Shown: positions 5,317 through 61,964 of the stretch, piece by piece
Numbering within the stretch: the first letter of the stretch is position 1
How the letters are laid out: each line of letters begins with the position of its first letter
NCBI GenBank assembly: GCA_000993565.1
Contig: LBWK01000001.1
Span: forward strand, 300,208 to 364,207
Direction of reading: 5' to 3'
Length of the DNA stretch: 64,000 nucleotides
Origin: a candidate division WS6 bacterium GW2011_GWF2_39_15
Lineage (GTDB): Bacteria > Patescibacteriota > Dojkabacteria > SC72
Notes under the pieces: model-generated
Told to the model about the DNA's origin: nothing
The model's input: only the letters and a program-made list of their open reading frames with translations
Database searches by the model: none
Translations under genes and position numbers: made by a program

Positions 5317-5373
5317 TTTCTATATTCTCTCCTTAAAAAAAACATTTCATTTAAATGTTAGAATGTCAATGAG

Positions 5374-7740: not shown

Positions 7741-9729
<1,989 letters not shown>

Positions 9730-9766
9730 CCTTTATATTCTTTCCTTACAGGCTTATAATCCCAGT

Positions 9767-10753: not shown

Positions 10754-10789
10754 CAATATAATGAGATATTAATTTGAAAATATCGCACG

Positions 10790-22832: not shown

Positions 22833-22852
22833 AGCTGTAATTATACGAAATA

Positions 22853-24037
22853 ATGTATAATTTAACCATGAAAATACTTCTAGCTGTCCCAGAATATCCT
22901 CCACATCATATTGGAGGTGGTGGTGAAGTTTACAAACAGCTTGCAACAAACTATCAGCGATTAGGGCATGAGGTAACTGTTTTATATGGATATTATCCAA
23001 ATAGGGGATTAAATTCCAAAATTAAGAGCTACAAGAAAGATAATATAATCTTCTATGAGGTCCCGGAGCTACCATACCCTAAGTCGAAACCATTTCTCAG
23101 AACCGCAATGCCAGCTACCATGAAAGCAAAAAAAGAGCTTCAGGACATTATTAGTTCTGACATTTTTGATGTCGCACACCTTCACGGATATGGTTGGCCT
23201 TTAATAAACACAATTGCAGGGCTTTGTATGAAATTTAATATTCCTTATATTTACACATTACATGGATACCCTGAGAGCCAGAATTCTTCCCCAATTTTAA
23301 GACTTATATGGAATAACTTCATATTACCAACCCAAAATAGATCCCTAAGTCAAGCCCATTCACTAACGGCAATCTCCGACTATGTGGCAAAGGATCCAAG
23401 GAACACTCAACTTAGCAAGACTCATACAATATTCAACGGAATCAATTACAGTTCATTTAGAGAGATCGCAAATGAGGTAGATATAAAGACGGAAAACAAC
23501 ATTTCAGATGATGACTTATTCATATATTCAATAGGTAGGTTGGCAGAAATGAAAGGCTTCCAGAATATCGTTAAGTTGATACCTCAGATAAATAAGCAGG
23601 GAATGAAAGTAAAATACTTAATCGCCGGTGATGATGATGGATATATGAAAGAATTGGAAAAGCTAGTTTCAAACTTAAGGTTAGAGGATCAAGTTAAGCT
23701 TGTAGGTTTTCATGGTGATGATACTAAAAAAATGTTCATAAAACAGTGTAATATATACGCAGTTCCATCGTTATGGGAACCATTTGGTTTAACCGTTCTT
23801 GAAGGAATGGTATTTGAGAAACTGATACTAACAACCGAGGCCGGAGGGATTAAGGAAGTTTTGGAGGGATATAGCAACAAGATTAATATGGATGATAAAG
23901 ATCTGATAAATAAAATCATCAGTAGAAAGCAAAATAGAAGCGAAATGGATTGGAATAGATTTAATTGGGAAACAATATCCAAGAATTATCTTAGTCTTTT
24001 AGAAGAAGCCGCTATTCATACAAAGAGATTAGCCTGA
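22853..24037 (+). CDS. Glycosyltransferase family 4 (GT-B, GT1-domain).
   Basis: N-terminal LLAVPEYPPHHIGGGGEV. C-terminal motifs VPSLWEPFGLTVLEGM match the EX7E region of GT4. Confidence 0.8.
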   Translation: MYNLTMKILLAVPEYPPHHIGGGGEVYKQLATNYQRLGHEVTVLYGYYPNRGLNSKIKSYKKDNIIFYEVPELPYPKSKPFLRTAMPATMKAKKELQDIISSDIFDVAHLHGYGWPLINTIAGLCMKFNIPYIYTLHGYPESQNSSPILRLIWNNFILPTQNRSLSQAHSLTAISDYVAKDPRNTQLSKTHTIFNGINYSSFREIANEVDIKTENNISDDDLFIYSIGRLAEMKGFQNIVKLIPQINKQGMKVKYLIAGDDDGYMKELEKLVSNLRLEDQVKLVGFHGDDTKKMFIKQCNIYAVPSLWEPFGLTVLEGMVFEKLILTTEAGGIKEVLEGYSNKINMDDKDLINKIISRKQNRSEMDWNRFNWETISKNYLSLLEEAAIHTKRLA

Positions 24038-29907: not shown

Positions 29908-32900
29908 ATGGGACTTAACGCCGGTGGTATGCAAGAAATACATCCTGATATCCAGTCAGATAGAGAGTTAATAACCTCTGGTAAAGTTCCTCAGGGAACT
30001 GCTGAAGCTAATGACAAATTAAATACTCCAGTAGTAGATATTACAAAGACAACTGGTTATTATGGGAATGATTTAACAACCGATCCTCTCCCGCTTACTG
30101 CTGAAGCGACAGCAAAGATACTTAGAAGAGGTCCTGCACAAAATGAAGATAATGGAGAAACAGGCTTGAAAGCCGGCGAGGAAAGACCTAAAACTCAATC
30201 TGCTATTCCTGTAGCCAACGGATCAGCTTATGTCGAATCAGTTAGTCCTTCAACCCCTGCACAGCAGACACCAGACACCGAAGGACTTGATCAACTTAAT
30301 ACCCCCTTATATACGCTTACTGGAGGAGGAGAGACCACTTCGACTAATGTAACTACGCCAAATGCAACAGAAGGTAAAGCAGGTAAAAACGGTACTGATA
30401 CATCAGATGACTTAGTAGCAAAGCTAAGATCAATGTTGTCCCAGGCTGACAAAGATAAGCCTAAAGAACACACTATAGAAACACCTGTAGCCCAGGATCT
30501 CAATCAGGCAGTTACAGCTTTGGCTGCAGAAGTTGCTAAGGAACCTGAAAATAATTCAAAGAAGGAAGAGTTGAACGGCTTAAAGGAATTAAGTCAATCT
30601 GTAACGAACCTCTCACAACAGATAAACCAGGTGAAAATAGAAATCACAAATCAAGTTAATACTCAGGTTGCCCAAATTACTGCAAAGATGGAAGAATCTA
30701 AAGATAAGCTGGCAGGAACGGTAAACCACTATTATATGCAAGGGGGCTCAGTATTTCACGGGACAGTAGGAGCAGGTACACATATAGAAGTTACAAATAC
30801 GGCAAGTAATTTTAATACAGGAGCAGCAGGAATAAGCGTTAGAAATACAGCAGACCACGGAAGTACAATAAACAATGGCAATATTGTAGATGCAGGTGTT
30901 AATCTGGGTATACTAGATTTGAATGCAATGATGGAAGAAGCTGAAAATTTGGACAGGCTTGCAGACGAACCAGAAGCGCCAACTTCTCTAAGTGAGGCGG
31001 CAAGGGACACAGCCGATAAGGCGAGAGAGCTTACAGAGGATATAAAGACAAGAAAAACTGATCGAGTAACAGATCCGGCAGTTACACCTGATTCAAGTTC
31101 AACAACTCATCCACCCGTAATAAAACCTCAACCAAATGTAACACCGAACGATAATCCTCCTACACCTCCACAACCGGCAGTAGCAGTAACAGATGACAGT
31201 AGTGAGCATAAAGACACCGGAGTAACCCCAGAAGAGCAACCTACTTCCGATCCTAAGAAAGCAGCAGAGAATCTAGTAGGGCCATTGACTCCTGAAGAGT
31301 CACAGGAATTTGATAATGCGAATGAAAAGAAAGGTTTTCTCTTCAGCATAAAGAGAATGTTCAGCGGTGAAAACTGGAAGAGATGGGTACCAACAGTGAT
31401 AGGGTCGATCGCAGGTTCATTCGGGGTAAAACTGTTTGCAGGAGCAGCTCTATCAATGGGTCCAATTGGAACCGCATTACTCGGAGGTGCAATGGCTGGT
31501 TTTGCCATATATTCAGGATATAGAGCTATCAAGAACTTAAGTGAGGCAGCCAAGGCGGAAGGTAAATCTGTATGGCAGGTAATGGGCAACTTGGATTTTG
31601 TAAAAGGAGCCTTACTTGGAGGATTAATTTCTGGGGTAGGTAAAGCTTCAGCGAAGTTTATCCCTGGATTCGGTTCGCTTATGGCACTTGGACTTGAAGG
31701 AGGAACTTCGTGGCTATTTGAAAATCACCTTAACAAGAAACAGCAGGAATTAGTTAACAAATACATGGATACATACCAGGCACGCAGGTATGCAAATCTT
31801 AAGGATAAAGGATATGTCATTAGAGGTGCTGAAGGAGCACCTGCTGTAGGAATGGAATCCATACTTAAAGATATGACAAGTGCACCTTCAGAATCAGAAA
31901 AGAAGGTAGCAAAGAGAGCTGCACTTGCTTCCCTTATACATCTCTACAGCATAACTAAGGATGATGCCCATAAATTTGTTGAGTATACGATAAAGGAGAA
32001 CGGTGTCGATAAGGTGATTAAGGTTGATATTACACAAATTGCGATTGATGAAGCAGAAGGAAGTACAGAGAAATACAGAATGCTTCAACTTAAAGATACT
32101 GACAAGATTAATGTCGAGAAATTTATAGATACATTAGATACAGCCAAACTTACATCAGCGATTCAAGATGCATGGAACAAAACCGATGCAACTAAGAGGG
32201 CTGATATGGCTAAGGATCTTGTAAACCTCTTCGTTGGCTTGGAAGGCACAGAAGTAGAGAAGATTATGTCGGAAGAGAGAAAGAGCTATCTCTCATGGAT
32301 CAACTTCACAACTGGGTTACACTTTGGTATGGCGGCAGTAAATGTTGGATCCTCTCTTGCAGGAGCTTACGGAGCATTCAGAGACAATTTTGGTGTCAAT
32401 CATGATGCACAGGGAGTAAACACCTCAGATTCTCAACAAGCAACAGAAGATTATAGAAGTGCCCATCCAGAAGCCCCGCAGGCAGAAGTAGAGAGGGTAG
32501 TAAATGCTGAAGGCCACATAATTGATAAGGTAGATGTAGACGGAGGCGGCGTAGACTACTACGTCGACCAAACTACAAACCAATATGTTGTACTTTCTGG
32601 GACCGGTGCTGAAAGCGTATTTGAAATACAACACCCGGATCTTGGACAGGTAACCGCAACTGAAGTAACTACCCACGGAGATACAGGCATTGTTGCCACT
32701 TTGAGTGATAATGCAGGAAAAGTTGTTGGTGTAACATATGCCGACTCTACTGGACACATTGGAGTTTTGGATATGAACGGCGTAGGTCAGCATCTATTTG
32801 CAGGTGGAGGAGAGAGCCCAATACACGGAGTAACTCTCACTGATATACAGCCAAATGGTGATGCAACATTAGTTTTAGACAATGTAAACCATCAAGTAAA

Positions 32901-35259
32901 TCTAGGAAATCTTAACCTTGAACTTGACGGATCATCAACATCAGAGGTTCAGACACAGATTGGTGTATTGATGCCACAGAGTGGAGATTCAGTAAATAGT
33001 ATGCTTCACCATACAATTGAACAGGCTAAAACTCTGAATCCTAATTTGCAACAATATGACAATCTGGAACTTGAGAGAATGCTTTACCAGGAAGGAAGTG
33101 GTATCCATGCTAATGACGCCGCGATAAGGCAGGAGTTAGGTATCAGGGGAGCACTTGATGTATCAGAGGAATGGAGCTGGAAAGATTCACCTACAATTAT
33201 GTCCTGGCTAACGGAGCTTAACGGTGGGAATACTGTGGAACTAGGTTCACAGACAGTTACAGGCGGAACACCTGGTGTAAACACTTTCTTTGAAGGGCCG
33301 GAAGTTTCCGCATTTGACGTTGCAAATGCAGGATCTGCACCTGGAGAATCAGGTGGCTTTATCAGTGTAATGGATAGAATCGTAGAGCCATCACTTCTTG
33401 CTTTGGTAGGTGGTGTGATGGCAGGTGTATTTGCTTCACAACCTAAGAGTGGCGGTATTTCAAGGCAGAACGATGTAAATACCGCAACGGCAAAAGCCGG
33501 TGATGATAAGACAAAAGATGACAAAGGCAAGGGAGTAAGCAAAGAAACCTCAGTTGAATTAGCAGCAGGAGAAGGAGCTGTTGAAAAGAAAGTCGGAGGG
33601 CCAAAGGATGTAATCGTAAATCAGATACTTAAGAACGTTATACCTAATAAATATGTTGAGATAGCTGGAAAGAAATATATTCAGGTAGAGAGTGCACCTG
33701 GGCAATGGAAAGAAAAAGATGTTAAAGACGCCCAGCCTATATCAGCTGAAGACCTTGCAGATCTACTCTTGAATCAAACGGATAAGAATCTAAGAAGTAA
33801 AGATCTATCTGGAATACTTAATAGTGCGGCCATCAAAGGTGGGGCAACTATAAAATTAACGGAGGAAGATGGTTCTGAGACAACATATAAGAAGTCCGTA
33901 AAAGACAATGAACCAGGAAAGAGGCCTGTCAAATTAGTATCATGGATTAACACAGAGACAAAGAAGAGTAGCGATGTTCTAACTAGCGATGCACTTGCGA
34001 CCAAGATCCTTGATTTGAAGGAAAAGACAGTTACAGTATCAACGCCATCTGGAAGTCCACAAGGAGGACCAAGTGCTGAAGCTGGTGGAGACGAAACAAA
34101 GAAAGAGGGTGAGGTAGATAAGGAAAAAGCTCTGAAAGAAACTTTAAACAATATATTAGAAACTCTTCATATTGATAAAAAGCAAGTTGTTATTAATGGT
34201 GAAAAATACGAATATAACAAGGATGCCAAAATATGGATAAAGTCAGGTGCATTGTTCAACAAGAATCTAATTCAGAAAGGCTCTGATAATCTTAGTGACC
34301 AGCAAGTTGTTGAATCCTGGATTAAACTTGAGTCAAAACAGCTTGGGAAGGATTTGGAAACAACTCTTGGGAACGTCGACAGTGGGAAAAAGATAAATGT
34401 TATTGACGAAATATTTAGTAAGACACCGACCTCAGTATTGAAACAAGCAAATTACAATGGCGATGTTTATACTTATGATTCAGAAAAAGATGTATGGAAT
34501 AAGGATAAAAAGAGTAAAACGGCAAGTCCAAAGAGTATCACAGGATCTGGAATGACAACCTATATAGCGAATGGTACGGCCAACGCACTCCCAAGCAAAA
34601 AAGAAAATCTGATTTGGAAATCAGATACCAGAGCTTTTAATGACAAAGATTTGGCATTAGAAATTGCAAAACTGAGGGTAAGCACTAAGGAAGTAAAGTC
34701 TGAAACAAAATCCGCAGACAGTAATGCAGAAGGGGAAAAGAACAAGGAAGAAAAAGAGAAGAAAGAAAGTAAGGGCAGAAAACTCCTTAAGACAGCGCTT
34801 ATAGTATTAGCCGTAGCAGGAGGTATTACCTCATATGCAGTTGGTGGTTGGCAAGTAGCAGCAATTACATCAGGCATCAGCTGGTTGACGACACTTGGTC
34901 TAAATATCGGAGAAGGTTTGGCACAAAAAGGTATAAGCAAGAGACAAGCCGAAGCCGCTGAACTAGCAGAAAAGCTTAAAAACGAGAAACGAGCACTGAA
35001 GCCTGATGAAGAAAAGTCGTTGGAGGAAAGGAAGAGGAAGGACGAAAGGGCTAGAAATATTATTTATTGGCTCAAATTTGCCAGTAAAGTCACGGGTGCC
35101 CTATCAATATCATCTGGAGCTTCTGCACTGTTAGGTTTAGTGATTGATAAGTTCCAGATTAACATAAAAGGAATAATCGGAGGTGCTTTCAATAGACCAG
35201 AGATAAACCAAGTTCCTTTTGAACAAACAATAGACGAATCACTTAACTTAGGAAAGTAA
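29908..35259 (+). CDS. Giant 1783-aa membrane/surface protein.
   Basis: Uninterrupted 5.35-kb ORF. The first 274 aa hold a T/P-rich stretch and a coiled coil. The shared 52-aa module YYMQGGSVFHGTVG...NNGNI follows at aa 275-326. A glycine-zipper TM cluster (WVPTVIGSIAGSFGVKLFAGAALSMGPIGTALLGGAMAGFAIY...) follows at ~aa 490-600. The C-terminal third has degenerate repeats (G-x-x-Y-x-Y-x5-W-x-K, four copies). A C-terminal TM pair is present (LIVLAVAGGITSYAVGGWQVAAI). Confidence 0.8.
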   Translation: MGLNAGGMQEIHPDIQSDRELITSGKVPQGTAEANDKLNTPVVDITKTTGYYGNDLTTDPLPLTAEATAKILRRGPAQNEDNGETGLKAGEERPKTQSAIPVANGSAYVESVSPSTPAQQTPDTEGLDQLNTPLYTLTGGGETTSTNVTTPNATEGKAGKNGTDTSDDLVAKLRSMLSQADKDKPKEHTIETPVAQDLNQAVTALAAEVAKEPENNSKKEELNGLKELSQSVTNLSQQINQVKIEITNQVNTQVAQITAKMEESKDKLAGTVNHYYMQGGSVFHGTVGAGTHIEVTNTASNFNTGAAGISVRNTADHGSTINNGNIVDAGVNLGILDLNAMMEEAENLDRLADEPEAPTSLSEAARDTADKARELTEDIKTRKTDRVTDPAVTPDSSSTTHPPVIKPQPNVTPNDNPPTPPQPAVAVTDDSSEHKDTGVTPEEQPTSDPKKAAENLVGPLTPEESQEFDNANEKKGFLFSIKRMFSGENWKRWVPTVIGSIAGSFGVKLFAGAALSMGPIGTALLGGAMAGFAIYSGYRAIKNLSEAAKAEGKSVWQVMGNLDFVKGALLGGLISGVGKASAKFIPGFGSLMALGLEGGTSWLFENHLNKKQQELVNKYMDTYQARRYANLKDKGYVIRGAEGAPAVGMESILKDMTSAPSESEKKVAKRAALASLIHLYSITKDDAHKFVEYTIKENGVDKVIKVDITQIAIDEAEGSTEKYRMLQLKDTDKINVEKFIDTLDTAKLTSAIQDAWNKTDATKRADMAKDLVNLFVGLEGTEVEKIMSEERKSYLSWINFTTGLHFGMAAVNVGSSLAGAYGAFRDNFGVNHDAQGVNTSDSQQATEDYRSAHPEAPQAEVERVVNAEGHIIDKVDVDGGGVDYYVDQTTNQYVVLSGTGAESVFEIQHPDLGQVTATEVTTHGDTGIVATLSDNAGKVVGVTYADSTGHIGVLDMNGVGQHLFAGGGESPIHGVTLTDIQPNGDATLVLDNVNHQVNLGNLNLELDGSSTSEVQTQIGVLMPQSGDSVNSMLHHTIEQAKTLNPNLQQYDNLELERMLYQEGSGIHANDAAIRQELGIRGALDVSEEWSWKDSPTIMSWLTELNGGNTVELGSQTVTGGTPGVNTFFEGPEVSAFDVANAGSAPGESGGFISVMDRIVEPSLLALVGGVMAGVFASQPKSGGISRQNDVNTATAKAGDDKTKDDKGKGVSKETSVELAAGEGAVEKKVGGPKDVIVNQILKNVIPNKYVEIAGKKYIQVESAPGQWKEKDVKDAQPISAEDLADLLLNQTDKNLRSKDLSGILNSAAIKGGATIKLTEEDGSETTYKKSVKDNEPGKRPVKLVSWINTETKKSSDVLTSDALATKILDLKEKTVTVSTPSGSPQGGPSAEAGGDETKKEGEVDKEKALKETLNNILETLHIDKKQVVINGEKYEYNKDAKIWIKSGALFNKNLIQKGSDNLSDQQVVESWIKLESKQLGKDLETTLGNVDSGKKINVIDEIFSKTPTSVLKQANYNGDVYTYDSEKDVWNKDKKSKTASPKSITGSGMTTYIANGTANALPSKKENLIWKSDTRAFNDKDLALEIAKLRVSTKEVKSETKSADSNAEGEKNKEEKEKKESKGRKLLKTALIVLAVAGGITSYAVGGWQVAAITSGISWLTTLGLNIGEGLAQKGISKRQAEAAELAEKLKNEKRALKPDEEKSLEERKRKDERARNIIYWLKFASKVTGALSISSGASALLGLVIDKFQINIKGIIGGAFNRPEINQVPFEQTIDESLNLGK
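30730..30886 (+). repeat. Coding copy A of a 157-bp inverted repeat (the partner is 37090..37246).
   Basis: By eye it aligns to the reverse complement of 37090..37246 with ~13 mismatches in 157 nt. It is codon-aligned, starting at codon 275 of the giant gene. Confidence 0.8.
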
Positions 35260-35740: not shown

Positions 35741-37288
35741 TTATTCTCTAACCCTTACAAACTCACTTTGTGATACAAAATGTATCCCGGTATCTGCTTG
35801 AAACACCTTTCTTCCTTCTTCAAACCACTTACCTTCAGGTGGATTGATCGAAGTCAGAATACCCAAGTATACAAAAGCTAAAAGCTGACATCCTGCCGGA
35901 GATTTATCAAACTTCTGCAACTTTGTATTTACTTTTGCTTTCTGTAATTCATTAAGTTCATCAGTTTCAAGAGGGGAGAGAAGATTGAATGAGCCTTTTT
36001 CTTCAATCATTATTCTAAATACTGAATTGAACTGCATATTCATATTACTAGCCAACCAATGTATTTTTTCTGAAGGTGTAAAATCGTCCCTCCAACCATC
36101 TGGGATTCTATCTTTTCGGATACCACCTTCCATTGGATCCACATAGTGAATTACATATCCTCCAAAGGCTTCATCTTTCACAGGAGTACTCAATATCGCA
36201 CGCGCATGTCCGCCAATATGACGATCCTGGGAAGAATAGTAGATACCAACCGGAATTCCCCATCTGTCTCCAAGCTTTGCCATATCAGTTACATTTATCT
36301 CAGTCTCTCTATTGGCATAGCTATCTAGACGGGGAACATCATCCTGTGCTCTTGGCCAGACATCATGATCAGGAAGTTCATCCGTTGTAATGTGGAATTC
36401 GGCTGGCCTACCAGGTTCCCTTGTTTCATGAACGTTTAGGTCATCGATATAAGGAGGTACAAAACCATGCAAAAGGTACTCTCTAACATCGGAACCTTTC
36501 TGGGACAAGATTTTCCTGAACATATCTTCAAGATAATTCGCAACGGTCAGGTTCCTATTTACCCAATGCTGAACCAGTGAGGCATCCATAATGGGTTCCT
36601 CAAGTAGAACAGCTGGAACCTCAACCATTAACCGGCTATGATCTTCCTGCTCTCGGATTATTAGGATAAATAAAGGGTTTTCTTTAGTATCAGAATCCAG
36701 TTCATCTTCTTTTGTCACAACAATATCAACGACGTCTTCATCCTCTTTTGTTTCAATATCAGGGTAAATACTAACCATGTCTTCAAGGTTTTCACCTAAG
36801 GCTTCAGTGAGTTGCATTTGATTTTTTACAATTTGTATTTGGTCATCAATGCTATCTATTTCCTCGCTTATGTCTAAATCTCCGTGATCTGTACTCGTAT
36901 GTGGAGCTGTTTCTTCTCCTTTTGGTCGCAGCGGCTCATCAGATTTTGAAGGAATTGTGGATACCGGAGTTGCACTGTCTACTTTCTGAGGTTCTGGGGT
37001 TGAGGTCTTCTTTTCTGTATCATCAAAGGTAGCAGCTTCTTCCATTGTAGTATCCTGTGTCAAAGTTTTCAGACTAGTCTTTGTGACGGCAATATTGCCA
37101 TTGTTTATTGTGCTTCCATGGTCTGCTGTATTTCTAACGCCTATTCCGACTGCTCCTGTATTGAAATTACTTGCCATATTTGTAACTTCTATATGGGAAT
37201 CTGATCCTACTGTTCCGTGAAATACTGAGCCCCCATGCATATAATATTCATTTGAAGATTCAACACTTTTCTTCCTTTGACCATTCAT
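35741..37288 (-). CDS. 515-aa protein with the shared N-terminal module, an acidic linker and a C-terminal globular domain.
   Basis: aa 15-66 (YYMHGGSVFHGTVGSDSHIEVTNMASNFNTGAVGIGVRNTADHGSTINNGNI) are ~85% identical to giant-protein aa 275-326. An S/T/P/E-rich linker follows. The C-terminal ~250 aa contain conserved-looking His/Cys residues (RHIGGHARAI, SPAGCQLLAF). Confidence 0.7.
   Translation of the reverse strand: MNGQRKKSVESSNEYYMHGGSVFHGTVGSDSHIEVTNMASNFNTGAVGIGVRNTADHGSTINNGNIAVTKTSLKTLTQDTTMEEAATFDDTEKKTSTPEPQKVDSATPVSTIPSKSDEPLRPKGEETAPHTSTDHGDLDISEEIDSIDDQIQIVKNQMQLTEALGENLEDMVSIYPDIETKEDEDVVDIVVTKEDELDSDTKENPLFILIIREQEDHSRLMVEVPAVLLEEPIMDASLVQHWVNRNLTVANYLEDMFRKILSQKGSDVREYLLHGFVPPYIDDLNVHETREPGRPAEFHITTDELPDHDVWPRAQDDVPRLDSYANRETEINVTDMAKLGDRWGIPVGIYYSSQDRHIGGHARAILSTPVKDEAFGGYVIHYVDPMEGGIRKDRIPDGWRDDFTPSEKIHWLASNMNMQFNSVFRIMIEEKGSFNLLSPLETDELNELQKAKVNTKLQKFDKSPAGCQLLAFVYLGILTSINPPEGKWFEEGRKVFQADTGIHFVSQSEFVRVRE
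37090..37246 (-). repeat. Coding copy B of the 157-bp inverted repeat.
   Basis: Reverse complement of the 30730..30886 copy. Codon-aligned, starting at codon 15 of the 515-aa gene. Confidence 0.8.
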
Positions 37289-37333: not shown

Positions 37334-38644
37334 TTATTTCAGCGGATGCTTCTCCTTATGCGTCTCCTGTGCATACTTATCTGATGCATGCACATATCTT
37401 GTTGTTGTATTGAGACTTTCATGACCAAGCAATACCTGTATAGCAGCAGGACTCGCACCATTTTCAGCCAAATATGTTGCAAAACCATGCCTTAAACTAT
37501 GTGCAGAAGTAGGGACTAAAATGCCTAATCTACGCCTATAATTAGCAATACACTCCTGAAAATAGTTTGTAGATAATCGCGCATTTACATGTTTAGCCCT
37601 AGTCCCGCGAAGCGGAGTAAACAGGGCAGGGGAGTCAAACTTATCCAAGTATCTTGATTTCCTATATTCCTCAATGGTTTTCACATACCTCCACCTATCG
37701 TTTGCATCACTTATGAGATCAACAATATCCTTATTATCCTCAGATGTTTCACGATCAAGTATAAAAGCATGTCTCAGCCTTATCTCTAAATATCTATCCA
37801 ACCAATCCATTGCCCGGTCAGTCATATAAACGAACCTCTCTTTCTTTCCTTTACCCTTTATAAACAGCTTCCCGTCAAGGTTTATCTGATCCAGATTGAG
37901 ATTAATAAGCTCCGAGATACGCATACCAGTTGAAAAAAGCAACTCCATCATTGCACGATTACGCACTCCGACATCATGATCGTGCTCAAACTCAACCGGT
38001 GACTCAATCAGTCTAACTAAATCTTCCAACTCAGCCACCTGTGATTTCTTCTTGTCCGCCTTAATTAATTTAATTGCATCAGGAGGAATTGGAACCTCCA
38101 AATCTCTATCAATTCTGAATTTCAAATAACTTCTGATTGCACTCAACATACGATTGACGCTTCGGGCATCCAAACCGGTATCAGATCGACTGGAGACATT
38201 GGCAGGCTTACCGTGTACCCCAAGACTTCCGAACACCTTGCGATATACATCCTCGAGAAATTTTCCTTTAAACTCGGTACTTTCCGTCTCACTCACAGGT
38301 CTCAATACAGTACCCTCAGGCACTTCGACGGTTCTAGACCCCTTGTAGCCCTTTGAGGTATCTTCCTGTGCTGTATCAACCTTTCTTAAGTATTTCTCCC
38401 TTATTTTATCCAAATCCTTCAAATGATCACCATTTCTAAGGTAGCCCTTGTACAAAGTCACCTGTTCTTTATTCAACTTCTCAAAGGAATACGAATTAGC
38501 ATCAAGAAACACTGCAAAAATTGAAAGATCCCGTGCGTAATTAAGTACTGTCTGCATACTATAATTGTTATTCTGAAGCTCTAAAAGAAAGGAGTCCTGA
38601 TCAGGAAGCTTCGGAATTACTGTGTTCATATTTTTAGAAGACAT
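37334..38644 (-). CDS. Tyrosine site-specific recombinase (XerC/XerD/integrase family) with a ~130-aa insertion.
   Basis: The N-terminal core-binding domain and the C-terminal catalytic domain carry ...AHSLRHGFATYL... and LLGHESLNTTTRYVH (HxxR and the Tyr nucleophile). At 436 aa it is longer than a typical ~300-aa Xer. Confidence 0.85.
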   Translation of the reverse strand: MSSKNMNTVIPKLPDQDSFLLELQNNNYSMQTVLNYARDLSIFAVFLDANSYSFEKLNKEQVTLYKGYLRNGDHLKDLDKIREKYLRKVDTAQEDTSKGYKGSRTVEVPEGTVLRPVSETESTEFKGKFLEDVYRKVFGSLGVHGKPANVSSRSDTGLDARSVNRMLSAIRSYLKFRIDRDLEVPIPPDAIKLIKADKKKSQVAELEDLVRLIESPVEFEHDHDVGVRNRAMMELLFSTGMRISELINLNLDQINLDGKLFIKGKGKKERFVYMTDRAMDWLDRYLEIRLRHAFILDRETSEDNKDIVDLISDANDRWRYVKTIEEYRKSRYLDKFDSPALFTPLRGTRAKHVNARLSTNYFQECIANYRRRLGILVPTSAHSLRHGFATYLAENGASPAAIQVLLGHESLNTTTRYVHASDKYAQETHKEKHPLK

Positions 38645-43058: not shown

Positions 43059-43577
43059 ATGAAAAGGAAGAAAGAGACTACACTTGAGACTCTTGATAGG
43101 AAACTGGACGAGATCTCGGAGAGATTAAAAGACCATGACAGCAGGTTTATATCTATAGACAAAAGGTTTGATAGTGTAGACAATCAATTCATCAGCATAG
43201 CTAAAAAATTTGATAGTATCGACAATCAATTTATCAGCATAGATAAAAGGCTTGACAGTTTCGATAAACAATTCGCTAACATAGACAAAAGGTTTAATAT
43301 AGTGAATAAAAGATTTGATTTAGTAAACGGAAAACTTATAAAAATAGCTCGGGAGCAAACCTCAAACTCCATGTCTCTGTTCTCATTGGGCGACAAGATT
43401 AATAATCTTGAAAGTCTTTACGAAACAGTTAATGATAAACTTGATACATCAATGATTATCTCAAATAAGCTTTTCGCTGAATATTCACAGAAGATTGAAG
43501 TACTGGATTATAAAGTCAATGAAATAAGTCTAAAACTTGCTGACAAGGAGACTAATCAAAAGTACAAGAAAAAATAG
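43059..43577 (+). CDS. Coiled-coil protein built from 11-aa tandem repeats.
   Basis: DKRFDSVDNQFISI, AKKFDSIDNQFISI, DKRLDSFDKQFANI, DKRFNIVNKRFDLV. The underlying DNA is 33-bp tandem repeats (43140-43330). Confidence 0.5.
   Translation: MKRKKETTLETLDRKLDEISERLKDHDSRFISIDKRFDSVDNQFISIAKKFDSIDNQFISIDKRLDSFDKQFANIDKRFNIVNKRFDLVNGKLIKIAREQTSNSMSLFSLGDKINNLESLYETVNDKLDTSMIISNKLFAEYSQKIEVLDYKVNEISLKLADKETNQKYKKK
43140..43330 (+). repeat. 33-bp imperfect tandem repeats within the CDS (~5-6 units).
   Basis: Consensus ...gacaaaaggtttgatagtgtagacaatcaattcatcagcata... repeated with substitutions. Confidence 0.6.
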
Positions 43578-43581
43578 ACCT

Positions 43582-46104
43582 CTACTCTTGATCCATATTA
43601 TTCTGAGCCGGAATCACTACAGGTGAACCTATTTCCCCTGCTTTTACAACACTTGGCATCTCCACGTTTGAAGATACTGTCTCTGTTCTTTTTCCATTAT
43701 TTACATTCATTAATGCCCTATTCCCTTTATCACTATACTTCTGTTCACTCCATCTTCTAATCTTGTCTTCTATAACTTCCTGGTCTGCACTATACCTCTC
43801 TCTAGAGTTTTGTATAATCTTCTCTTTATTCCCAAATTTCTCATATCTAAGATCTAGAGATTTGGCGCTGAAAGGTTTTGAAGTCATCCCATCAATACAA
43901 AGCTTCACATAAAGAGAGTGGGATTCAAGAGAGACAAGGTCCTCTGCAGAAAATATTGGAGCAAACTCATTAGAGAGAATCGATGCATCTCCCTGGCTAA
44001 CTACAAATGAAGCCAGTGTTCCCACATTACCAAAAATAGCCTGCCTTACAGTTAAAGGTATCTGATCTATATACTGGTTGGTCATGGTGAGATTAAGTTT
44101 GAACTTTCTGGCTTCTGAAAGAATTTTTGCAAAAGAATCTGTTGCAAAGTTCTGAAACTCATCAACATAGAGATAGAAGTCTCTTCTTTGTGCCATAGGG
44201 ATATCAACTCTCTCCATTGCCGTAGATTGGAGCCTTGTAATTAACATCCCGCCAAGCAGAGCCGAACTTTCCTCTCCGATCTTGCCTTGAGCCAAGTTAA
44301 CTAACAATATTTTGCCCTCATCCATAACATTTCTCAAATTAAAGGAGGACTTCACCTGCCCGACTATATTTCTAATTACAGCAGAAGATATAAACCGGCC
44401 AACCTTGTTCTGAATAGGTGCAACTGCCTCCGAAACCAGCTTAGAGTTCTGCGACATCTGTGCAAACTCCTCCTCCCAGAACTTATATAAGATGGGATCT
44501 TTCACCTGTTTAAGAATAAACTTGCGGTAGTTTCGATCATTAAGAAGCCGCATAACCGAGAGAATTGTTGTTCCCTGAGCTTCAAGAGCAGTTGAAATGG
44601 TGTTAGTAAGGATGTATTGAAGACGTGGCCCCCAAGACTCAAACTGCTTTTTGAAAACTTCCACAACACCATCCGCAACCAGATCCCGCTGTGACGAGTC
44701 ATTCATCTCCAAAAGGTTGAAAGCAATTGGGTGCTTCACGTCTGCAGGGTCAAAATATATGACATCGTTCACTCTTTCAGGGGGAATGAAATCGAGAAGC
44801 TCATCAACCGTCTCACCGTGAGGGTCTATAAAACACGCTCCGTTACCGGCAATCACATCTGAAATGAACATATTCTTGAATACCGTTGATTTACCTACCC
44901 CCGTTTTACCCAATAAATAGACGTGGCGTCTTCTATCGTCCTTCTTAACTCCAAAGGATATTTTCTGCCCCCGATAGTCAGTCTCAGCAAAGGCATTAAC
45001 GTCAGGCTCCCCGGCAAGAGGCAGATCCATTGGAGGTTCAGCTTTCCTTGCCCTGCTCCACAAAATATTCGGCGTCTCCACAGAAATATTTGGCAGATGA
45101 AAAACAGAGGCAAGTTCTTCAATATTCAGAATATCTTCAGGTGTAGAAACCAATTTTCTCTTCAGGAAATCGCCGTATATTGATTGGGCACTCTGGTTAG
45201 GTGCCGAATGGACAAAGCTATTCAGGTGAGCAGTTGTAAACTGCTTGAAACTAGCAACAAGATCTCTAAGTATCTGCTCAGATCTTGGCTGATCGGGAGA
45301 TTTTGTAACAACCCTAATACTCACTTCAAACCCAAGTTTAAGCATTTTGGTTTCAATCTGAGTGAGCTCTTCCTGCTGGCCTGGCGCCAGCTTTACAACC
45401 TCTTTACCTCCACCTTTCTCTGTAGATGTCTGAAGGGATTTCGAGATATCCTTAACCATCTTCATAAGGAGTTCCCCAATACTGTTAATAGAGCTCTTCC
45501 CCTCCTTAATCTCCGTAATATATTTCTTTGAAGCCTCCTGCCAATAATTAGCTATTGGTCTCATGTTGAACTGCACCCAAGCTTCCTCTCCAAGCTTTAG
45601 GCCTGAAATGGCACTTGTAATAGCGGCCAGAGGATCAACTTCAAAGTTCCGAAATGTTTTAATCGGGAATATATAACTCTTATCAAGTTCTACAATTCCG
45701 GTACTCACAAAAACCTGTGATTCTCCACGAGTCGCAGTGTAGTCCTGAACATGCTTAATTTCAGCATTTGGATACTGTGCATAGATCTGTCCCTGAACAA
45801 ACTCGGCAAGATGCGCAGGGATAACGGCATAGAAACGTATCCCATTTTCACCTGAAGACACTATTTCAAACGAAATTAGATCCAACGACTTCTTGGAATC
45901 TCTTAGAATTCCATGCAATGATGCAAACATCTGTTCCGCTGCTAGAGGCGTTTTATCATTCTCTCTAGGCACAAGAATTTGTAAAACCTGAGGATTTCTC
46001 ACCTCTTCAAACACAACAACACTCTTAGGCTTCTGTGCAAAGGTGAAAACAAACAGCACAAAAAATACTGATAGAATGAGTAATATTAGTATTGTCCCTG
46101 TCAT
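43582..46104 (-). CDS. TraD/TraG/VirD4-like (type IV coupling protein family) P-loop ATPase with an N-terminal TM anchor and a ~350-aa pre-ATPase domain.
   Basis: Walker A LLGKTGVGKST is followed by a FIDPHGE motif resembling the T4CP DPKGE motif. Walker B is YLYVDEFQNF. A single N-terminal TM helix is present. 840 aa. Confidence 0.55.
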   Translation of the reverse strand: MTGTILILLILSVFFVLFVFTFAQKPKSVVVFEEVRNPQVLQILVPRENDKTPLAAEQMFASLHGILRDSKKSLDLISFEIVSSGENGIRFYAVIPAHLAEFVQGQIYAQYPNAEIKHVQDYTATRGESQVFVSTGIVELDKSYIFPIKTFRNFEVDPLAAITSAISGLKLGEEAWVQFNMRPIANYWQEASKKYITEIKEGKSSINSIGELLMKMVKDISKSLQTSTEKGGGKEVVKLAPGQQEELTQIETKMLKLGFEVSIRVVTKSPDQPRSEQILRDLVASFKQFTTAHLNSFVHSAPNQSAQSIYGDFLKRKLVSTPEDILNIEELASVFHLPNISVETPNILWSRARKAEPPMDLPLAGEPDVNAFAETDYRGQKISFGVKKDDRRRHVYLLGKTGVGKSTVFKNMFISDVIAGNGACFIDPHGETVDELLDFIPPERVNDVIYFDPADVKHPIAFNLLEMNDSSQRDLVADGVVEVFKKQFESWGPRLQYILTNTISTALEAQGTTILSVMRLLNDRNYRKFILKQVKDPILYKFWEEEFAQMSQNSKLVSEAVAPIQNKVGRFISSAVIRNIVGQVKSSFNLRNVMDEGKILLVNLAQGKIGEESSALLGGMLITRLQSTAMERVDIPMAQRRDFYLYVDEFQNFATDSFAKILSEARKFKLNLTMTNQYIDQIPLTVRQAIFGNVGTLASFVVSQGDASILSNEFAPIFSAEDLVSLESHSLYVKLCIDGMTSKPFSAKSLDLRYEKFGNKEKIIQNSRERYSADQEVIEDKIRRWSEQKYSDKGNRALMNVNNGKRTETVSSNVEMPSVVKAGEIGSPVVIPAQNNMDQE

Positions 46105-46142
46105 AGTATTACGATTTTAAACAAAAGAGCTCTCGAGAACAA

Positions 46143-47384
46143 TCATCTCCATCTAAGCTCACTTTCTTTATCTTCACCAAGTATAACAATTATATCACCA
46201 GTTGTAATGAAATCAGGTCTTCCATTAATTATTTCACACTTTCCACAGACCAGGTCTTCCACACTATTAAAAGAGTTTAAAAACTTCTTTTTATCCGAAA
46301 TATATATGGTAGTTTTAGGGAGATTATTCGGTGCATTATCATACCTGACTACTTTCACTCCATAGTTTTGCACCTTTCGTGCATATCTTCCCGCAAGTCC
46401 TGAAACCCCGCTACCATTGTAAACCTCTACTCTTGCCTGCTCTTTCTCTACCAGTCTCGTCCTTATAATGTTAAAGTTCTCTTCAATTTTCCGATCGAAT
46501 TCAGGATAGTTAATAACACTAATGTTTCTACCGTTACTGTCTATGCGTGAGACATACGCCCATTTTTGACTCAAATCTATCATTTTAATCCCACCTGCAT
46601 CAAGCTGCGAGTATCCTCTGTGCAATAGCTTTATAAGGGCTATAGATGTGAGATTGGAATCGACACCGGAAATAAACTTATTCCATACCTCAGATTTAAC
46701 AGCAAGAGTAACTAAGTTGAACCTGCTGTAAAAAGAGTTAATTCCCATACTAGCAGCTGATACATCACGAGATGGATTAAACTTCTCTTTAAAATCATAT
46801 TCACTATACTCGCTAATATCTCCAAACATAGTTGCATACAAACTTAGAGACTTTTCATCCAGCCATATATAGTTCTCAACCGTAAAGCCAGTCATATTTT
46901 CAATCTGCCACACTACATACTCAACAGTACGATTAGGGTTGACCAATTTTGCTGCGTATTCCAAATCCGCAACCTGAATGTGGGCGTTGAAAAGCTGGTT
47001 AGGATCCTCAACATAAACCCCGGGAGGTATATAAATTACTAATGTAGAACCGGTGTTTTCGTTATTAACGATTAACCAACCTCCTGCAAGTCTATTATCA
47101 ACAGGAGACTTAAAGATCACCAATGTAGATGATAAGTCTTTCCGCTCTTTAATGAGATTCAGACGCGATTTGCAGACACTACAGTGAGAATCAGCCGTAA
47201 GAAGATTATTAGCTACCGTAAACGAGCTGTAGACCCCCAGAGTGAGTACTAAGATAATAAGTACCCATCTAATCCATCTAAGTGGGCTTATCTTCCTTTC
47301 ATTTTTTCTAGATTTTAAAAATCCGGAGTTTTGTCTACCACGCTCTATTCTCTTCATATGATACCTCCATCTTACTACAAACAA
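46143..47384 (-). CDS. LytR-CpsA-Psr (LCP) family protein with a LytR_C-like C-terminal domain.
   Basis: N-terminal TM helix and a central LCP-like domain. The C-terminal RVEVYNGSGVSGLAGRYARKVQNYGVKVV matches the LytR C-terminal domain. Confidence 0.65.
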   Translation of the reverse strand: MFVVRWRYHMKRIERGRQNSGFLKSRKNERKISPLRWIRWVLIILVLTLGVYSSFTVANNLLTADSHCSVCKSRLNLIKERKDLSSTLVIFKSPVDNRLAGGWLIVNNENTGSTLVIYIPPGVYVEDPNQLFNAHIQVADLEYAAKLVNPNRTVEYVVWQIENMTGFTVENYIWLDEKSLSLYATMFGDISEYSEYDFKEKFNPSRDVSAASMGINSFYSRFNLVTLAVKSEVWNKFISGVDSNLTSIALIKLLHRGYSQLDAGGIKMIDLSQKWAYVSRIDSNGRNISVINYPEFDRKIEENFNIIRTRLVEKEQARVEVYNGSGVSGLAGRYARKVQNYGVKVVRYDNAPNNLPKTTIYISDKKKFLNSFNSVEDLVCGKCEIINGRPDFITTGDIIVILGEDKESELRWR

Positions 47385-59593: not shown

Positions 59594-60643
59594 TTAAATA
59601 TGCACAGGAGTTAAAAGATCCTGTGATATAAAGTATCTTTTTCCATCTTCCAGCTCTATTGATACCATATTCTCCTCTTCGTTCAGATCTAAGACTTTGC
59701 CTATTGCCCTGAAATTATCAACATCCATAACTCTTACGTTCATTCCAGGCTTAAGAAAAGAAATAAACCCTGATGGATATTCATGAGGGGCTTTATGCAG
59801 GTATGTACCTTGATCCGGCCATATAACGATATTTTTTTCAAGATCGACACTGACAAAAGAGTTGGTTAAAGATTTGCAGATAGATACATACTCCTTAGGG
59901 TATGGAATATTACCAAATCCCCCTATTATCCCGACGGAGAAATTAAGAGTTGCGAAGTCTTCATAATCCATTGAATACACTATTATGTACTCTGCTCCTC
60001 TCTCATATATCTCACGAAGGAGATCCGGATATGCAAACCGGCCTGCATAAACGATTTTTCCCTTATAATTATCCTTTAGGTCTTTTACAACATACATAGA
60101 GTTTCCCTCTCCCAAAACTTCAAACTCCCCTACCCTTACGTTTTTATACTCATTAGGTCTCTCATGATAGTTATCCGTAAGCATTGGCATAAACCAAACC
60201 ATGGTTTCTACACTCATGCCGTTCGAAAGGTCTACATCAAGAACCTTACCGTGATATTGGGCTGTATACTCGTCATTTTCAGATTCACTTAGTACATCCA
60301 GAAACCCTTTTTCAATTCTTGCCGTACTTAGTATTCCGTCGGAAGAAGCATAAAGTCTTTTCATAGCTAGACCACCTCCTGACATCCTCTCGGCAAGAAT
60401 CTCGCCTTTGAGCACATACTCACCGTTAAGCCTTACCACATAGTCTTGAGCACCCTCAACCTTAACACCTAACTCTTTAGGAATATAAGTGCTTCCTAGA
60501 ATTCTCTTTGATGACTTTGTAAAAAGCATGCTCCCTGGTTTGATTAGTTCTCCCCTTTTAGTCATAACCTCAACACTACCTTCAAAAGGTATTAGCATTC
60601 GATATCTGACCTCTCTATATAGTAGTTTAGACAATTGGAGCAT
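59594..60643 (-). CDS. Hypothetical protein.
   Basis: 349-aa ORF, co-oriented and overlapping with the next gene. Confidence 0.45.
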   Translation of the reverse strand: MLQLSKLLYREVRYRMLIPFEGSVEVMTKRGELIKPGSMLFTKSSKRILGSTYIPKELGVKVEGAQDYVVRLNGEYVLKGEILAERMSGGGLAMKRLYASSDGILSTARIEKGFLDVLSESENDEYTAQYHGKVLDVDLSNGMSVETMVWFMPMLTDNYHERPNEYKNVRVGEFEVLGEGNSMYVVKDLKDNYKGKIVYAGRFAYPDLLREIYERGAEYIIVYSMDYEDFATLNFSVGIIGGFGNIPYPKEYVSICKSLTNSFVSVDLEKNIVIWPDQGTYLHKAPHEYPSGFISFLKPGMNVRVMDVDNFRAIGKVLDLNEEENMVSIELEDGKRYFISQDLLTPVHI

Positions 60644-61964
60644 TCATCCACGAACTCATTTTAATGTGATTATCCTTAGGTTCAGGGCCGTAGATAATCG
60701 GGCGGTATCTGCTATCAACGATAACACTGTTATACTTCCTCTTCCCCACAATCAAGCCATATTTGAACTCCGAGTATAAACTGCTTCCTTTTATAAACTC
60801 GCCTTTAATCTCCTGTATATCAACATCCCTATCGACAATTATCTGAGTGATTTCGTTAGATAGAGCGTAAACATTTTTTTCATCACCCTTTTCATTAGTA
60901 ATTTTGGCTGTGAAAAGAACTCGTTTCTTCTCACCCTCATTAGCAACATCCGGAATTACAATCTGATCAAGCCTGGAAATGAAATCCTCTACATGTGTTA
61001 AGAAACCTGTCTTTGAGACTCCACCGGCATATACTTTCCCCAAATTATATGTACTGAATGTATTATCAACTGCAATATCACAGACATCCGTTAATTCCAT
61101 TGCATCAATTAAGGATAACAACATAGTTGAATATTGTAGCGAGGTTGTAATAGATCCCGTAACTAAAACCAATGTACTGTATTTATTCTCACCTATCTTA
61201 TCAAAAGACCCCTTATTATCATTTCTAATTGTCAGAAGCTGAAGAGCCATATACGCACGCAAAAGATCTTTTATAGAACCAACGCTTGACTTACCTTTAT
61301 CTCCCAAAACATAGTTCGCCCATGAATTCTGCAGCCTGGTTTTATTCGTTTCGATCTCCAGAAAGGCTTTTAATCTAGGGCTATTAATATTGTCGATTAC
61401 TTTCCATTCGTTCCCAAGCTCTATCTTCCCATGCTTGAATACATAGGGATGAACATTCGATTCATTTAAAGTTCTACGCCTCTTTTCACGATGCAGTCTA
61501 TACAGATACGTATTATCCAGATTAAGATCGACTAGCACGACATCTTCATATCCCAATTTTTCGGATATTCCCATCAAAAGATCCTGGACATAACCGTTAT
61601 CTATCTGCAGGATTGAGATGTCTTTAGAAACCTCTCTTATTATTTCTACATATTCTTTTCTAGGATATGCCCGAGTGTCCAAAATAAATATTATTGAGTC
61701 CAATCCAAACCCTTCGTCTGCAAATGTCATCATTTCACTTGAATTGTTTCTGAAAAACTCCCAATCGAAGTACTTCTCTAATGCATTTAGGTATTCTACA
61801 AGAAAATCTGCTGTAATTTCTGAAGAATTAATTCTGAGAGTATCACTTCTCACATAATGCCTGGCAATCGTATAGTCGTTATAGACAAGTTTAGCCACTA
61901 TTCTTGTTTGGCTAAGCTCAACCAAAAGGTTTGCTGATTTTTCTAAGTTAGGCAGTTTAATCAC
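60627..61964 (-). CDS. Hypothetical protein, possibly actin-like ATPase fold.
   Basis: 445-aa ORF with no firm motifs. Confidence 0.4.
   Translation of the reverse strand: MIKLPNLEKSANLLVELSQTRIVAKLVYNDYTIARHYVRSDTLRINSSEITADFLVEYLNALEKYFDWEFFRNNSSEMMTFADEGFGLDSIIFILDTRAYPRKEYVEIIREVSKDISILQIDNGYVQDLLMGISEKLGYEDVVLVDLNLDNTYLYRLHREKRRRTLNESNVHPYVFKHGKIELGNEWKVIDNINSPRLKAFLEIETNKTRLQNSWANYVLGDKGKSSVGSIKDLLRAYMALQLLTIRNDNKGSFDKIGENKYSTLVLVTGSITTSLQYSTMLLSLIDAMELTDVCDIAVDNTFSTYNLGKVYAGGVSKTGFLTHVEDFISRLDQIVIPDVANEGEKKRVLFTAKITNEKGDEKNVYALSNEITQIIVDRDVDIQEIKGEFIKGSSLYSEFKYGLIVGKRKYNSVIVDSRYRPIIYGPEPKDNHIKMSSWMNAPIV

Follow-up and report, generated by a model that had tools for sequence, protein, structure and literature searches.

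Between positions 43582 and 47384 of a 64,000-nucleotide stretch of the genome of the candidate division WS6 bacterium GW2011_GWF2_39_15 (contig LBWK01000001.1, positions 300,208 to 364,207; the whole stretch is called the window here), two genes follow one another on the minus strand: one for a membrane protein that ends in a LytR_C domain and, downstream of it, one for a predicted ATPase of 840 amino acids (aa), which is the subject of this analysis. The ATPase combines a P-loop motor resembling that of type IV coupling proteins (T4CPs), the VirD4-type ATPases of type IV secretion systems (T4SSs), with an N-terminal domain of the family DUF8128 (PF26449). An earlier note on this stretch had described an 840-aa protein with one N-terminal transmembrane (TM) helix, a Walker A motif GKTGVGKST, a DPHGE motif and the sequence YLYVDEFQNF, and the open reading frame (ORF), the hydrophobicity and the motif positions all agree with that description. 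The features of the gene, from the N-terminus of the protein onwards, are these:

43582..46104, minus strand: ATPase gene, an ORF of 840 aa (DUF8128 plus T4CP-like ATPase), stop codon included
46033..46095, minus strand: N-terminal signal-anchor TM helix, residues ~4-24 (helix 2-22 in the AlphaFold2 model)
45055..46002, minus strand: DUF8128 (PF26449) domain, residues ~35-350, whose fold is predicted to resemble the VirB4 N-terminal domain
44950..45054, minus strand: linker, residues 351-385, with a conserved EPPxxLP in which P358 and P362 are invariant
43735..44949, minus strand: T4CP-like RecA/P-loop ATPase domain, residues 386-790
44887..44910, minus strand: Walker A GKTGVGKS, residues 399-406, with K405 invariant; pairs with GATGTGKS of TrwB
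44812..44826, minus strand: DPHGE motif, residues 427-431, with D427, P428 and G430 invariant; pairs with DPNGD of TrwB
44320-44697, minus strand: all-alpha insertion in the ATPase domain, residues ~470-595 (helices H470-H581 in the model)
44074..44175, minus strand: Walker B YLYVDEFQNF (residues 644-653, D648/E649 invariant) together with R666, a putative arginine finger, and Q677, a putative sensor
43582..43734, minus strand: C-terminal tail, residues ~791-840, poorly conserved, and stop codon

The sole hydrophobic stretch of the ATPase spans residues ~1-26 (Kyte-Doolittle maximum 3.13) and, because there is no second TM helix ahead of the ATPase domain, the N-domain must be cytoplasmic. Of 61 full-length family representatives, 54 likewise have an N-terminal hydrophobic segment (19-residue Kyte-Doolittle window > 1.7); the other seven may be truncated at the N-terminus or may carry a segment that falls below the threshold. 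The full-length AlphaFold2 model was built on a 72-sequence alignment. A profile search that started from a diverse alignment and was aimed at distant homologues yielded almost nothing but Dojkabacteria, and the diversity was supplied by a third search, for which a Saccharibacterial member served as the seed. The resulting model is confident (predicted local distance difference test (pLDDT) score 87.8, predicted template-modelling score (pTM) 0.76) and consists of a TM helix, an alpha/beta N-domain, the linker, a RecA-like core that contains an all-helical block, and a disordered tail. A variable, low-confidence insert lies inside DUF8128 at residues ~200-245, and pLDDT falls below 50 at residues 802-840 of the tail, a part that varies widely in length across a family whose proteins range from 800 to 1,130 aa. 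Identity to members from outside the Dojkabacteria is 32% in the N-domain, 44% in the motor and 11% in the C-terminal tail, and residues K405, D427/P428/G430, D648/E649, R666, Q677, P358 and P362 are invariant in alignments of 34 and of 72 sequences.

Several lines of comparison place the motor next to those of T4CPs. In Pfam, the ATPase matched TrwB_AAD_bind with 27 bits (cut-off 20.5) over residues 387-682, and its relatives also pass TraG-D_C and T4SS-DNA_transf. Its best sequence match among solved structures was TrwB, over the region from Walker A to DPxG, and a profile of the family run against PDB sequences ranked TrwB first (4.5e-8) and DotL/IcmO second (8.5e-7), followed by HerA (1.6e-3). 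The profile alignment to TrwB pairs K405 with K136, D648/E649 with D356/E357, R666 with R375 and Q677 with Q386 (TrwB residues numbered as chain index + 71), which we take to be the Walker A lysine, the Walker B Asp-Glu pair, the arginine finger and the sensor glutamine of TrwB. When the full-length model was compared with the PDB by Foldseek, TrwK/VirB4 ranked first (E 3.9e-15, collinear over 840-920 columns) and TrwB second (E ~3e-12, TMt 0.66-0.69, root-mean-square deviation 4-5 Å, ~410-450 columns), with Cag-beta and HerA after TrwB; nearly the whole TrwB-deltaN70 chain (~420 residues) was aligned to the model. The motor is thus homologous to the nucleotide-binding domain of TrwB, with Walker A and B motifs, arginine finger and sensor glutamine present, and in the predicted structure that domain contains an all-alpha insertion of the T4CP type. 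The earlier reading of the protein as a TraD/VirD4-like P-loop ATPase stands. The ATPase scores far below the NCBIfam equivalog cut-offs for SXT_TraD (31.9 vs 366), conju_CD1115 (28 vs 250) and conj_TOL_TraD (16.6 vs 648). Sequence models of VirB4 fared no better, with no match to CagE_TrbE_VirB, 18.2 bits against a cut-off of 27.5 for AAA_10, and 17 against 590 for the NCBIfam model VirB4_plasma.

The ~350 residues ahead of the motor had been noted earlier as a domain of unknown function. There is indeed an extra domain, but it is not featureless. The PF26449 (DUF8128) match is precomputed on each of the top 120 homologues, which are 67-86% identical to the window protein, and it is through these homologues that the N-domain is assigned to DUF8128. 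The structure prediction that the earlier note had proposed for this part was run on residues 27-385 alone (pLDDT 75, pTM 0.75). Foldseek gave 14 matches to this model with E<=0.001, all of them TrwK/VirB4 chains (E 6.4e-7 to 4.6e-4, ~400 columns, TMq 0.39-0.45), and the next matches were to unrelated proteins with E >= 5e-3. As no TrwB, HerA or FtsK chain was among the matches to the N-domain model, what is matched is the N-terminal domain specific to VirB4 and not the shared RecA core. We thus predict, at the level of fold only, an ATPase with a VirB4-type N-terminal domain, and hence a VirB4 architecture that carries a VirD4-like motor, its overall layout being modelled as VirB4-like rather than T4CP-like. 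We found no mention of DUF8128 in the literature searched.

Relatives of such motors include FtsK/SpoIIIE- and HerA-type translocases for chromosomes or DNA repair, as well as anti-phage ATPases (HerA-based, or like mad8 of MADS), and the protein could belong with one of these. Consistent with that idea, the DUF87/HerA model is reached, just at its threshold (23.4 vs 23.2 bits), the HerA structure 4d2i is matched by Foldseek (E~1e-11), and the PADLOC model for mad8 scores 46.7 bits, over the ATPase core only and with weak HerA matches beside it. We regard this assignment as remote, however. None of the Pfam FtsK families, FtsK_SpoIIIE, FtsK-gamma and 4TM included, matched the ATPase at E<=1; the family profile favours TrwB and DotL over HerA (4.5e-8 for TrwB vs 1.6e-3 for HerA); and HerA chains are missing from the matches to the N-domain model. 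No NurA, Sir2 or other mad gene and no nuclease gene was found among the neighbours of the ATPase, and the universal, vertical, single-locus conservation of the family is atypical of defence genes. Moreover, Southlakia keeps a separate canonical FtsK (SEML1_0096), which is essential, beside its member of the family (PMC10633639). The protein is thus not an FtsK or a HerA of typical architecture, the case that the earlier note had named as speaking against its reading.

Homologues of the ATPase number more than 7,900, and the N-domain by itself, searched against 1.84 billion cluster representatives, matched 2,321 of them. DUF8128 stands at the N-terminus throughout the top 150 representatives, fragments excepted, and among the representatives of at least 750 aa (n=61) the Walker A pattern occurs in 58, some 400-450 residues in, and a (Y/F)LYVDEF-type Walker B in 59. 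The closest homologues, at 63-86% identity, are from Candidatus Dojkabacteria (WS6, a lineage of the Patescibacteria or Candidate Phyla Radiation (CPR)). A genome scan that used one genome per species gave at least 600 loci, the best 80 of which were analysed (handles L001 and onwards); these come from Dojka-, Sacchari-, Peregrini-, Gracili-, Uhr-, Buchanan-, Doudna-, Falkow-, Morani-, Nomura-, Shapiro- and Daviesbacteria and from Microgenomates. A neighbour-joining tree of 76 units tracks the lineage groups as labelled and places the window ATPase within a Dojkabacteria clade, with one extra paralogous clade. We are highly confident, as regards both family and architecture, that the window ATPase belongs, as its Dojkabacteria orthologue, to an ancient family that is inherited vertically and is present in nearly all Patescibacteria.

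Two further observations concern the loci themselves. In some genomes there are two paralogous genes for DUF8128 ATPases, arranged in tandem or lying near each other (L009, at 2894-5440 and 7983-11060; L061; L014), one copy of each pair coming from a separate, deep paralogous clade that has no helix-turn-helix (HTH) neighbour of the kind described below. In addition, the titles of several records seem at odds with their content (L004, L011, L044, L050, L056, L071, L075, L077, L079 and L081), with, for example, Saccharibacteria named on contigs syntenic with Dojkabacteria, and Gammaproteobacteria, Chlamydiae, Bulleidia, Nevskiaceae and Methylomirabilota named on contigs with a DUF8128 ATPase, a gene whose other records bear Patescibacteria labels; these are likely mis-binned or mislabelled contigs of metagenome-assembled genomes (MAGs).

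The surroundings of the gene are those of a core chromosomal locus. The window holds gyrB/gyrA, glycosyltransferase genes, a xerC-like recombinase gene, ruvB-ruvA-ruvC-yebC, rluD and dnaB, as well as genes for tRNA-Leu, L31, RF1, prmC, htrA, ctpA and S18-SSB-S6, and seven further Dojkabacteria loci share the order dnaB...rluD-LytR_C-ATPase-(variable small gene)-yebC-ruvC-ruvA-ruvB-...-xerC. This setting bears on the possibility that the ATPase is a canonical conjugative coupling protein, or a VirB4, that remained when an integrative or conjugative element decayed, as might be suggested by the matches to TraD/VirD4-type models and by a tyrosine recombinase gene 5 kb away (37334-38644). The housekeeping synteny is kept across Dojkabacteria, the recombinase included, and the family tree is congruent with the labelled lineage groups; relaxase and mating-pair formation (Mpf) genes were not found in the window; the scores lie far under the TraD/VirD4 equivalog cut-offs given above; and the GC content of the gene (0.417) is near the window average (0.388). 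A remnant of this kind is hardly credible in view of these findings: the ATPase gene is a core chromosomal gene in housekeeping synteny, and the earlier note was right to place it outside any conjugative element.

The recombinase encoded at 37334-38644 on the minus strand is XerC/D-like and 436 aa long, with ~150 residues between its SAM-like N-domain (18-70) and its catalytic domain (223-422); it is part of the Dojkabacteria synteny and not a marker of a mobile element. Several large ORFs of the window have no Pfam match at all, namely 29908-35259 (plus strand, 1,783 aa), 19980-23000 (minus, 1,006 aa), 24829-26469 (plus, 546 aa), 35741-37288 (minus, 515 aa) and 60627-61964 (minus, 445 aa), and the first four, which lie among the glycosyltransferase genes, may encode lineage-specific envelope or surface proteins. 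Converging on the ATPase gene from the other side is a 172-aa ORF (43059-43577, plus strand) that ends 4 nt from the ATPase stop. It is predicted to form a coiled coil of ~11-residue repeats (xDKRFDSIDNQFISI...) and has weak, non-specific matches of the SMC/tropomyosin coiled-coil type, far below curated cut-offs; in L001 the same position is held by a gene for a PemK-family toxin.

The gene upstream of the ATPase has the following features:

46143..47384, minus strand: LytR_C gene, a 413-aa ORF, upstream of the ATPase gene, co-oriented with it and separated by a 38-bp gap
47208-47276, minus strand: TM segment of the LytR_C protein, residues ~37-59
46170-46439, minus strand: LytR_C domain (PF13399), residues 316-405, 47 bits

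The ORF opens at a TTG at 47384; orthologues align from Met10, which makes the ATG at 47357 the probable start and gives 404 aa. The gene had been described as a co-oriented neighbour of the LytR-CpsA-Psr (LCP) family of cell-wall glycopolymer ligases. The orientation is as described; the LCP identity was not borne out by the domain searches. The product is like LCP enzymes in being a single-pass protein with an extracytoplasmic region that ends in a LytR_C domain, and differs from them in that LytR_C is its sole detectable domain: the catalytic domain LytR_cpsA_psr (PF03816) gave no match at E<=1 in the window protein and six orthologues, and a profile of these seven proteins matched no LCP structure in the PDB at E<=10. 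By eye, the central ~230 aa of the protein may follow a loosely LCP-like strand pattern that lacks the conserved Arg and Asp.

One may nevertheless suppose that the two genes form an envelope module, in which the ATPase would supply the energy to export or assemble either a polymer of the cell wall or surface or a protein on which the extracytoplasmic LytR_C protein acts. The genes are co-oriented, no terminator-like site was found in the 38-bp gap between them, and the pair is kept in eight Dojkabacteria loci, the window among them. A promoter and terminator scan around both genes gave counts at the level of shuffled sequence. However, the pairing is restricted to one Dojkabacteria subclade with ~20 kb of synteny (the window, L001-L006 and L011), and the ATPase is kept with no LytR_C gene beside it in deeper Dojkabacteria (L007, L008) and in every other lineage examined. 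Because it is limited to these eight closely syntenic loci, the adjacency carries little functional weight, and the LytR_C gene is probably a merely co-transcribed part of the synteny. T4CP and VirB4 motors are not known to act on glycopolymers, which also counts against such a module. Together with the undetected LCP catalytic domain, these points make the module very unlikely, and they lend no support to the link to glycopolymer ligation suggested by the earlier note.

In other lineages the ATPase gene keeps different company. Directly upstream of it and on the same strand, in 38 of the 80 loci, lies a gene for a protein of ~350 aa whose N-terminal part is a sigma-70 region 4 and whose C-terminal part is a HARE-HTH domain, like that of the delta subunit of RNA polymerase (RNAP) (for example L046:6710-7801 (+) and L069:6725-7810 (+)). 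These loci belong to the Saccharibacteria, where the order is dprA-topA-HTH-ATPase, and to a Parcubacteria-type clade, two separate major clades of the neighbour-joining tree. The partner was searched for in the window and was not found there, nor was it found in the Dojkabacteria loci. What looked like a single protein joining HTH partner and ATPase (L020:6801-10823, 1,340 aa), and hence like Rosetta-stone evidence, proved to be an artefact, a masked run of N bridging two genes.

In 14 loci (L050-L052, L057, L060, L062, L064, L065, L067-L070, L076 and L081), which form one monophyletic Parcubacteria-type clade that includes Uhr-, Buchanan-, Doudna-, Falkow- and Moranibacteria, the gene is broken exactly within the linker, so that an ORF for the TM helix and DUF8128 (~440-490 aa) is followed by one for the motor (for example L069:7854-9269 + 9291-11186), the break falling between '...PPxNLP' and 'FAETNFRG...'. 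The two ORFs are in the same frame in all 14 loci, with spacers of 0-27 nt and TAA or TAG stops. Programmed read-through was considered and seems unlikely, since several loci have 2-3 in-frame stops and the clade is monophyletic; the split clade probably descends from a single fission event that left a tiny spacer. Because it forms a separate ORF in these 14 loci, the DUF8128 N-domain can be regarded as an autonomous, membrane-anchored module.

At one locus, L075 (1684-7900 (-), 7998-10187 (+) and 16003-17520 (-)), the ATPase gene adjoins, and is divergent from, a T4SS cluster with genes for a PrgI/VirB3-like protein, for VirB4 (641 aa) and for an M23 hydrolase, as well as an ORF of 218 aa; a TrbL/VirB6 match, weak and below threshold, lies further away. 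The VirB4 of this cluster scores 94.9 bits with P-loop_TraG, also matches AAA_10, and is matched by the family motor profile with E 3.8e-4. The record is titled 'Gammaproteobacteria', and in the tree its ATPase groups with Microgenomates-type members.

Published surveys and genetics extend these observations. Quinonero-Coronel et al. (2025; PMC12102498) counted 5,713 VirD4-type T4CP homologues in 2,918 of 3,035 Patescibacteria genomes, in line with the earlier remark that ATPases of this class recur, uncharacterised, in small-genome bacteria. The same study detected VirB4 in 2,417 of the 3,035 genomes, and two Dojkabacteria entries of its Table S1, in which the class is mentioned at least five times, are VirB4-positive. 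Thus the ATPase may be called an orphan, as the earlier note called it, locally and not genome-wide: the source genome very probably encodes a VirB4-containing T4SS elsewhere. In Southlakia, for which the T4CP homologue is reported to be non-essential and the authors raise the possibility of exaptation (PMC12102498), the relevant gene can apparently be named. Wang et al. (2023; PMC10633639, Table S1) list SEML1_0293, a 921-aa protein with TrwB_AAD_bind at residues 402-719, preceded by SEML1_0294, a 349-aa protein annotated as 'RpoS', and by topA. From its matching architecture and its topA-HTH-ATPase context, and not from sequence comparison, SEML1_0293 is the apparent Saccharibacterial orthologue; SEML1_0294, matched by size and position and again not by sequence, appears to be the Southlakia counterpart of the HTH partner. 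SEML1_0293 is flagged as core and Patescibacteria-enriched and was non-essential at all time points, its normalised transposon-sequencing reads falling from 5817 to 2940 to 1372, which would predict a cost in fitness, as those of SEML1_0292 and cas9 stayed flat, whereas SEML1_0294 (likewise Patescibacteria-enriched), topA and the canonical FtsK are essential (PMC10633639). The essential T4SS cluster of Southlakia has, according to the authors, no recognisable coupling protein (PMC10633639).

The main rival explanation, possible though doubtful, is that the ATPase is an exapted, T4SS-independent motor of a housekeeping or competence type, which would act in DNA uptake or processing together with ComEC and type IV pili, or on chromosomal DNA at the membrane, and which might be guided by the DNA- or RNAP-binding sigma-region-4 and HARE-HTH protein. 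T4CP homologues are found in more genomes than VirB4 is and are rarely linked to virB4, exaptation has been raised by the authors of the survey (PMC12102498), and the ATPase is non-essential in co-culture, as is comEC. The neighbours are also DNA-related, both in Saccharibacteria (dprA-topA-HTH-ATPase) and in Dojkabacteria (yebC-ruvCAB and xerC), and the HTH partner recurs in two separate major clades. Adjacency of dprA and topA is common across bacteria, however, which takes force from the first of these settings, and the Dojkabacteria block is plain synteny. Since the HTH partner is essential and the ATPase is not, the two are not obligate partners; the partner has no counterpart in the window or the Dojkabacteria loci, and the one fusion that would have joined the two proteins was the artefact at L020.

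We favour instead, with somewhat better than even confidence, the explanation that the window gene encodes a membrane-anchored P-loop ATPase that belongs, within the FtsK-HerA superfamily, to the VirB4/VirD4 (T4SS ATPase) branch and would have an unlinked coupling role. TrwB, HerA and VirB4 assemble as hexamers and, because the arginine finger is conserved and these relatives are hexameric, we infer a membrane-docked ring ATPase. By analogy with TrwB, VirB4 and CedD, a ring, probably a hexamer, would assemble at the cytoplasmic face of the membrane and hydrolyse ATP at its subunit interfaces. Docking to the membrane or to a partner would fall to a module made up of the TM helix and the VirB4-like N-domain, which would be a separate polypeptide in the Parcubacteria-type split clade. 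The T4CP-like ring would bind a macromolecular substrate, most likely DNA or nucleoprotein, and feed or pull it through a membrane translocon, for which the most likely candidate would be the chromosomal T4SS of the archaeal/monoderm type that most Patescibacteria have elsewhere in the genome; the ATPase would couple substrates to it or gate it from an unlinked gene, much as CedD does in its own system. Judged by such analogies, that the protein is an active ring translocase is likely; that its substrate is DNA is a tentative assignment that falls short of even; and that it works with a distal T4SS is plausible to about the same degree or slightly less.

Several findings weigh against this explanation. 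Only 148 of the 5,713 published T4CP homologues lie near virB4 (PMC12102498), although we also count these 148, along with the arrangement at L075 and the precedent of CedD, as support for a T4SS link; among ~78 related loci, a T4SS cluster stands beside the ATPase in L075 only; and Pfam found no VirB4, relaxase or other recognisable T4SS gene among ~33 ORFs of the window. At least ~500 genomes have a T4CP homologue and no detected VirB4 (2,918 vs 2,417), a figure to be read with the incompleteness of MAGs in mind. In Southlakia the T4SS is essential while the ATPase is not. The VirB4-like fold of the N-domain comes from a predicted model (pLDDT 75) with modest TM-scores (0.39-0.45), and the sequence level is unsupportive: a profile of the DUF8128 N-domain matched no PDB sequence at E<=10, and hhalign of the N-domain with a CPR VirB4 and its 218-aa neighbour gave a probability below 1%.

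That the family is catalogued, nearly universal in the CPR and uncharacterised was already known. Added here are the predicted VirB4-N-terminal-domain-like fold of DUF8128, the recurrent sigma-region-4/HARE-HTH neighbour and the clade-wide split into docking module and motor. Much of bacterial diversity belongs to the Patescibacteria, which subsist on macromolecules from their hosts and whose chromosomal T4SS is essential. A DUF8128 ATPase family present in ~96% of surveyed genomes, of which the window gene is an ordinary orthologue, is the obvious candidate for a substrate-engaging motor, a candidate that is encoded away from the T4SS and dispensable in co-culture. If the extra domain is truly a VirB4-type docking module, this would have a bearing on the divergence of the two families of T4SS ATPases. 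A bolder proposal, which we think improbable, is that DUF8128 ATPases are a third, hitherto unrecognised lineage of T4SS-type ATPase, core to Patescibacteria, in which a VirB4-type docking domain is joined to a VirD4-type substrate-engaging motor and which, like archaeal CedD, would act as a coupling or gating motor importing host DNA or nucleoprotein through a chromosomal T4SS or a competence pore. Were it true, the missing nucleotide synthesis of the phylum would be tied to a specific uptake motor, and the family could preserve an architecture near that of the common ancestor of VirB4 and VirD4.

Compared with the T4CPs (TrwB of R388, VirD4, TraD, DotL/IcmO and Cag-beta), the DUF8128 ATPases share a homologous P-loop motor with an all-alpha insertion, conserve GxxGxGKS, DPxG(D/E), hhhhDE, the arginine finger and the sensor glutamine, and are likewise anchored to the membrane at the N-terminus. 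They differ in having one TM helix where T4CPs have two, in the ~320-aa VirB4-like domain predicted between anchor and motor, so that ~360 residues (DUF8128 and linker) precede Walker A, and in being chromosomal, vertically inherited and usually unlinked to relaxase or Mpf genes.

With VirB4 (TrwK of R388) they have in common an N-terminal domain followed by a C-terminal RecA-like ATPase in ~800 aa, and their N-terminal TM segment recalls VirB3-VirB4 fusions. Unlike VirB4, they match no VirB4 sequence model and have a motor that is nearer by sequence to those of T4CPs; genuine Patescibacterial VirB4 is a separate protein, such as the 641-aa protein of L075; and no VirB3, VirB6, VirB8 or pilin genes accompany the ATPase gene, L075 being the sole T4SS-adjacent related locus. 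The split of N-module and motor into two ORFs parallels the pairs of TrsD and VirB4 in T4SSs of the monoderm/Patescibacterial type, in which TrsD, related to the N-terminal part of VirB4, is encoded beside VirB4 (PMC12102498).

The last comparison is with CedD/TedD of Sulfolobales and Thermoproteales. The window ATPase scores 25 bits with the CedD model against a cut-off of 600 and is therefore not a member of that family, and the accessible part of PMC11823120 describes no N-terminal domain of CedD beyond its membrane anchor. The likeness lies in a chromosomal, membrane-bound, VirD4-like ATPase: in Sulfolobus, CedD is encoded on the chromosome away from the other genes of its system and is essential, together with a VirB4-like ATPase, for the import of DNA (PMC11823120).

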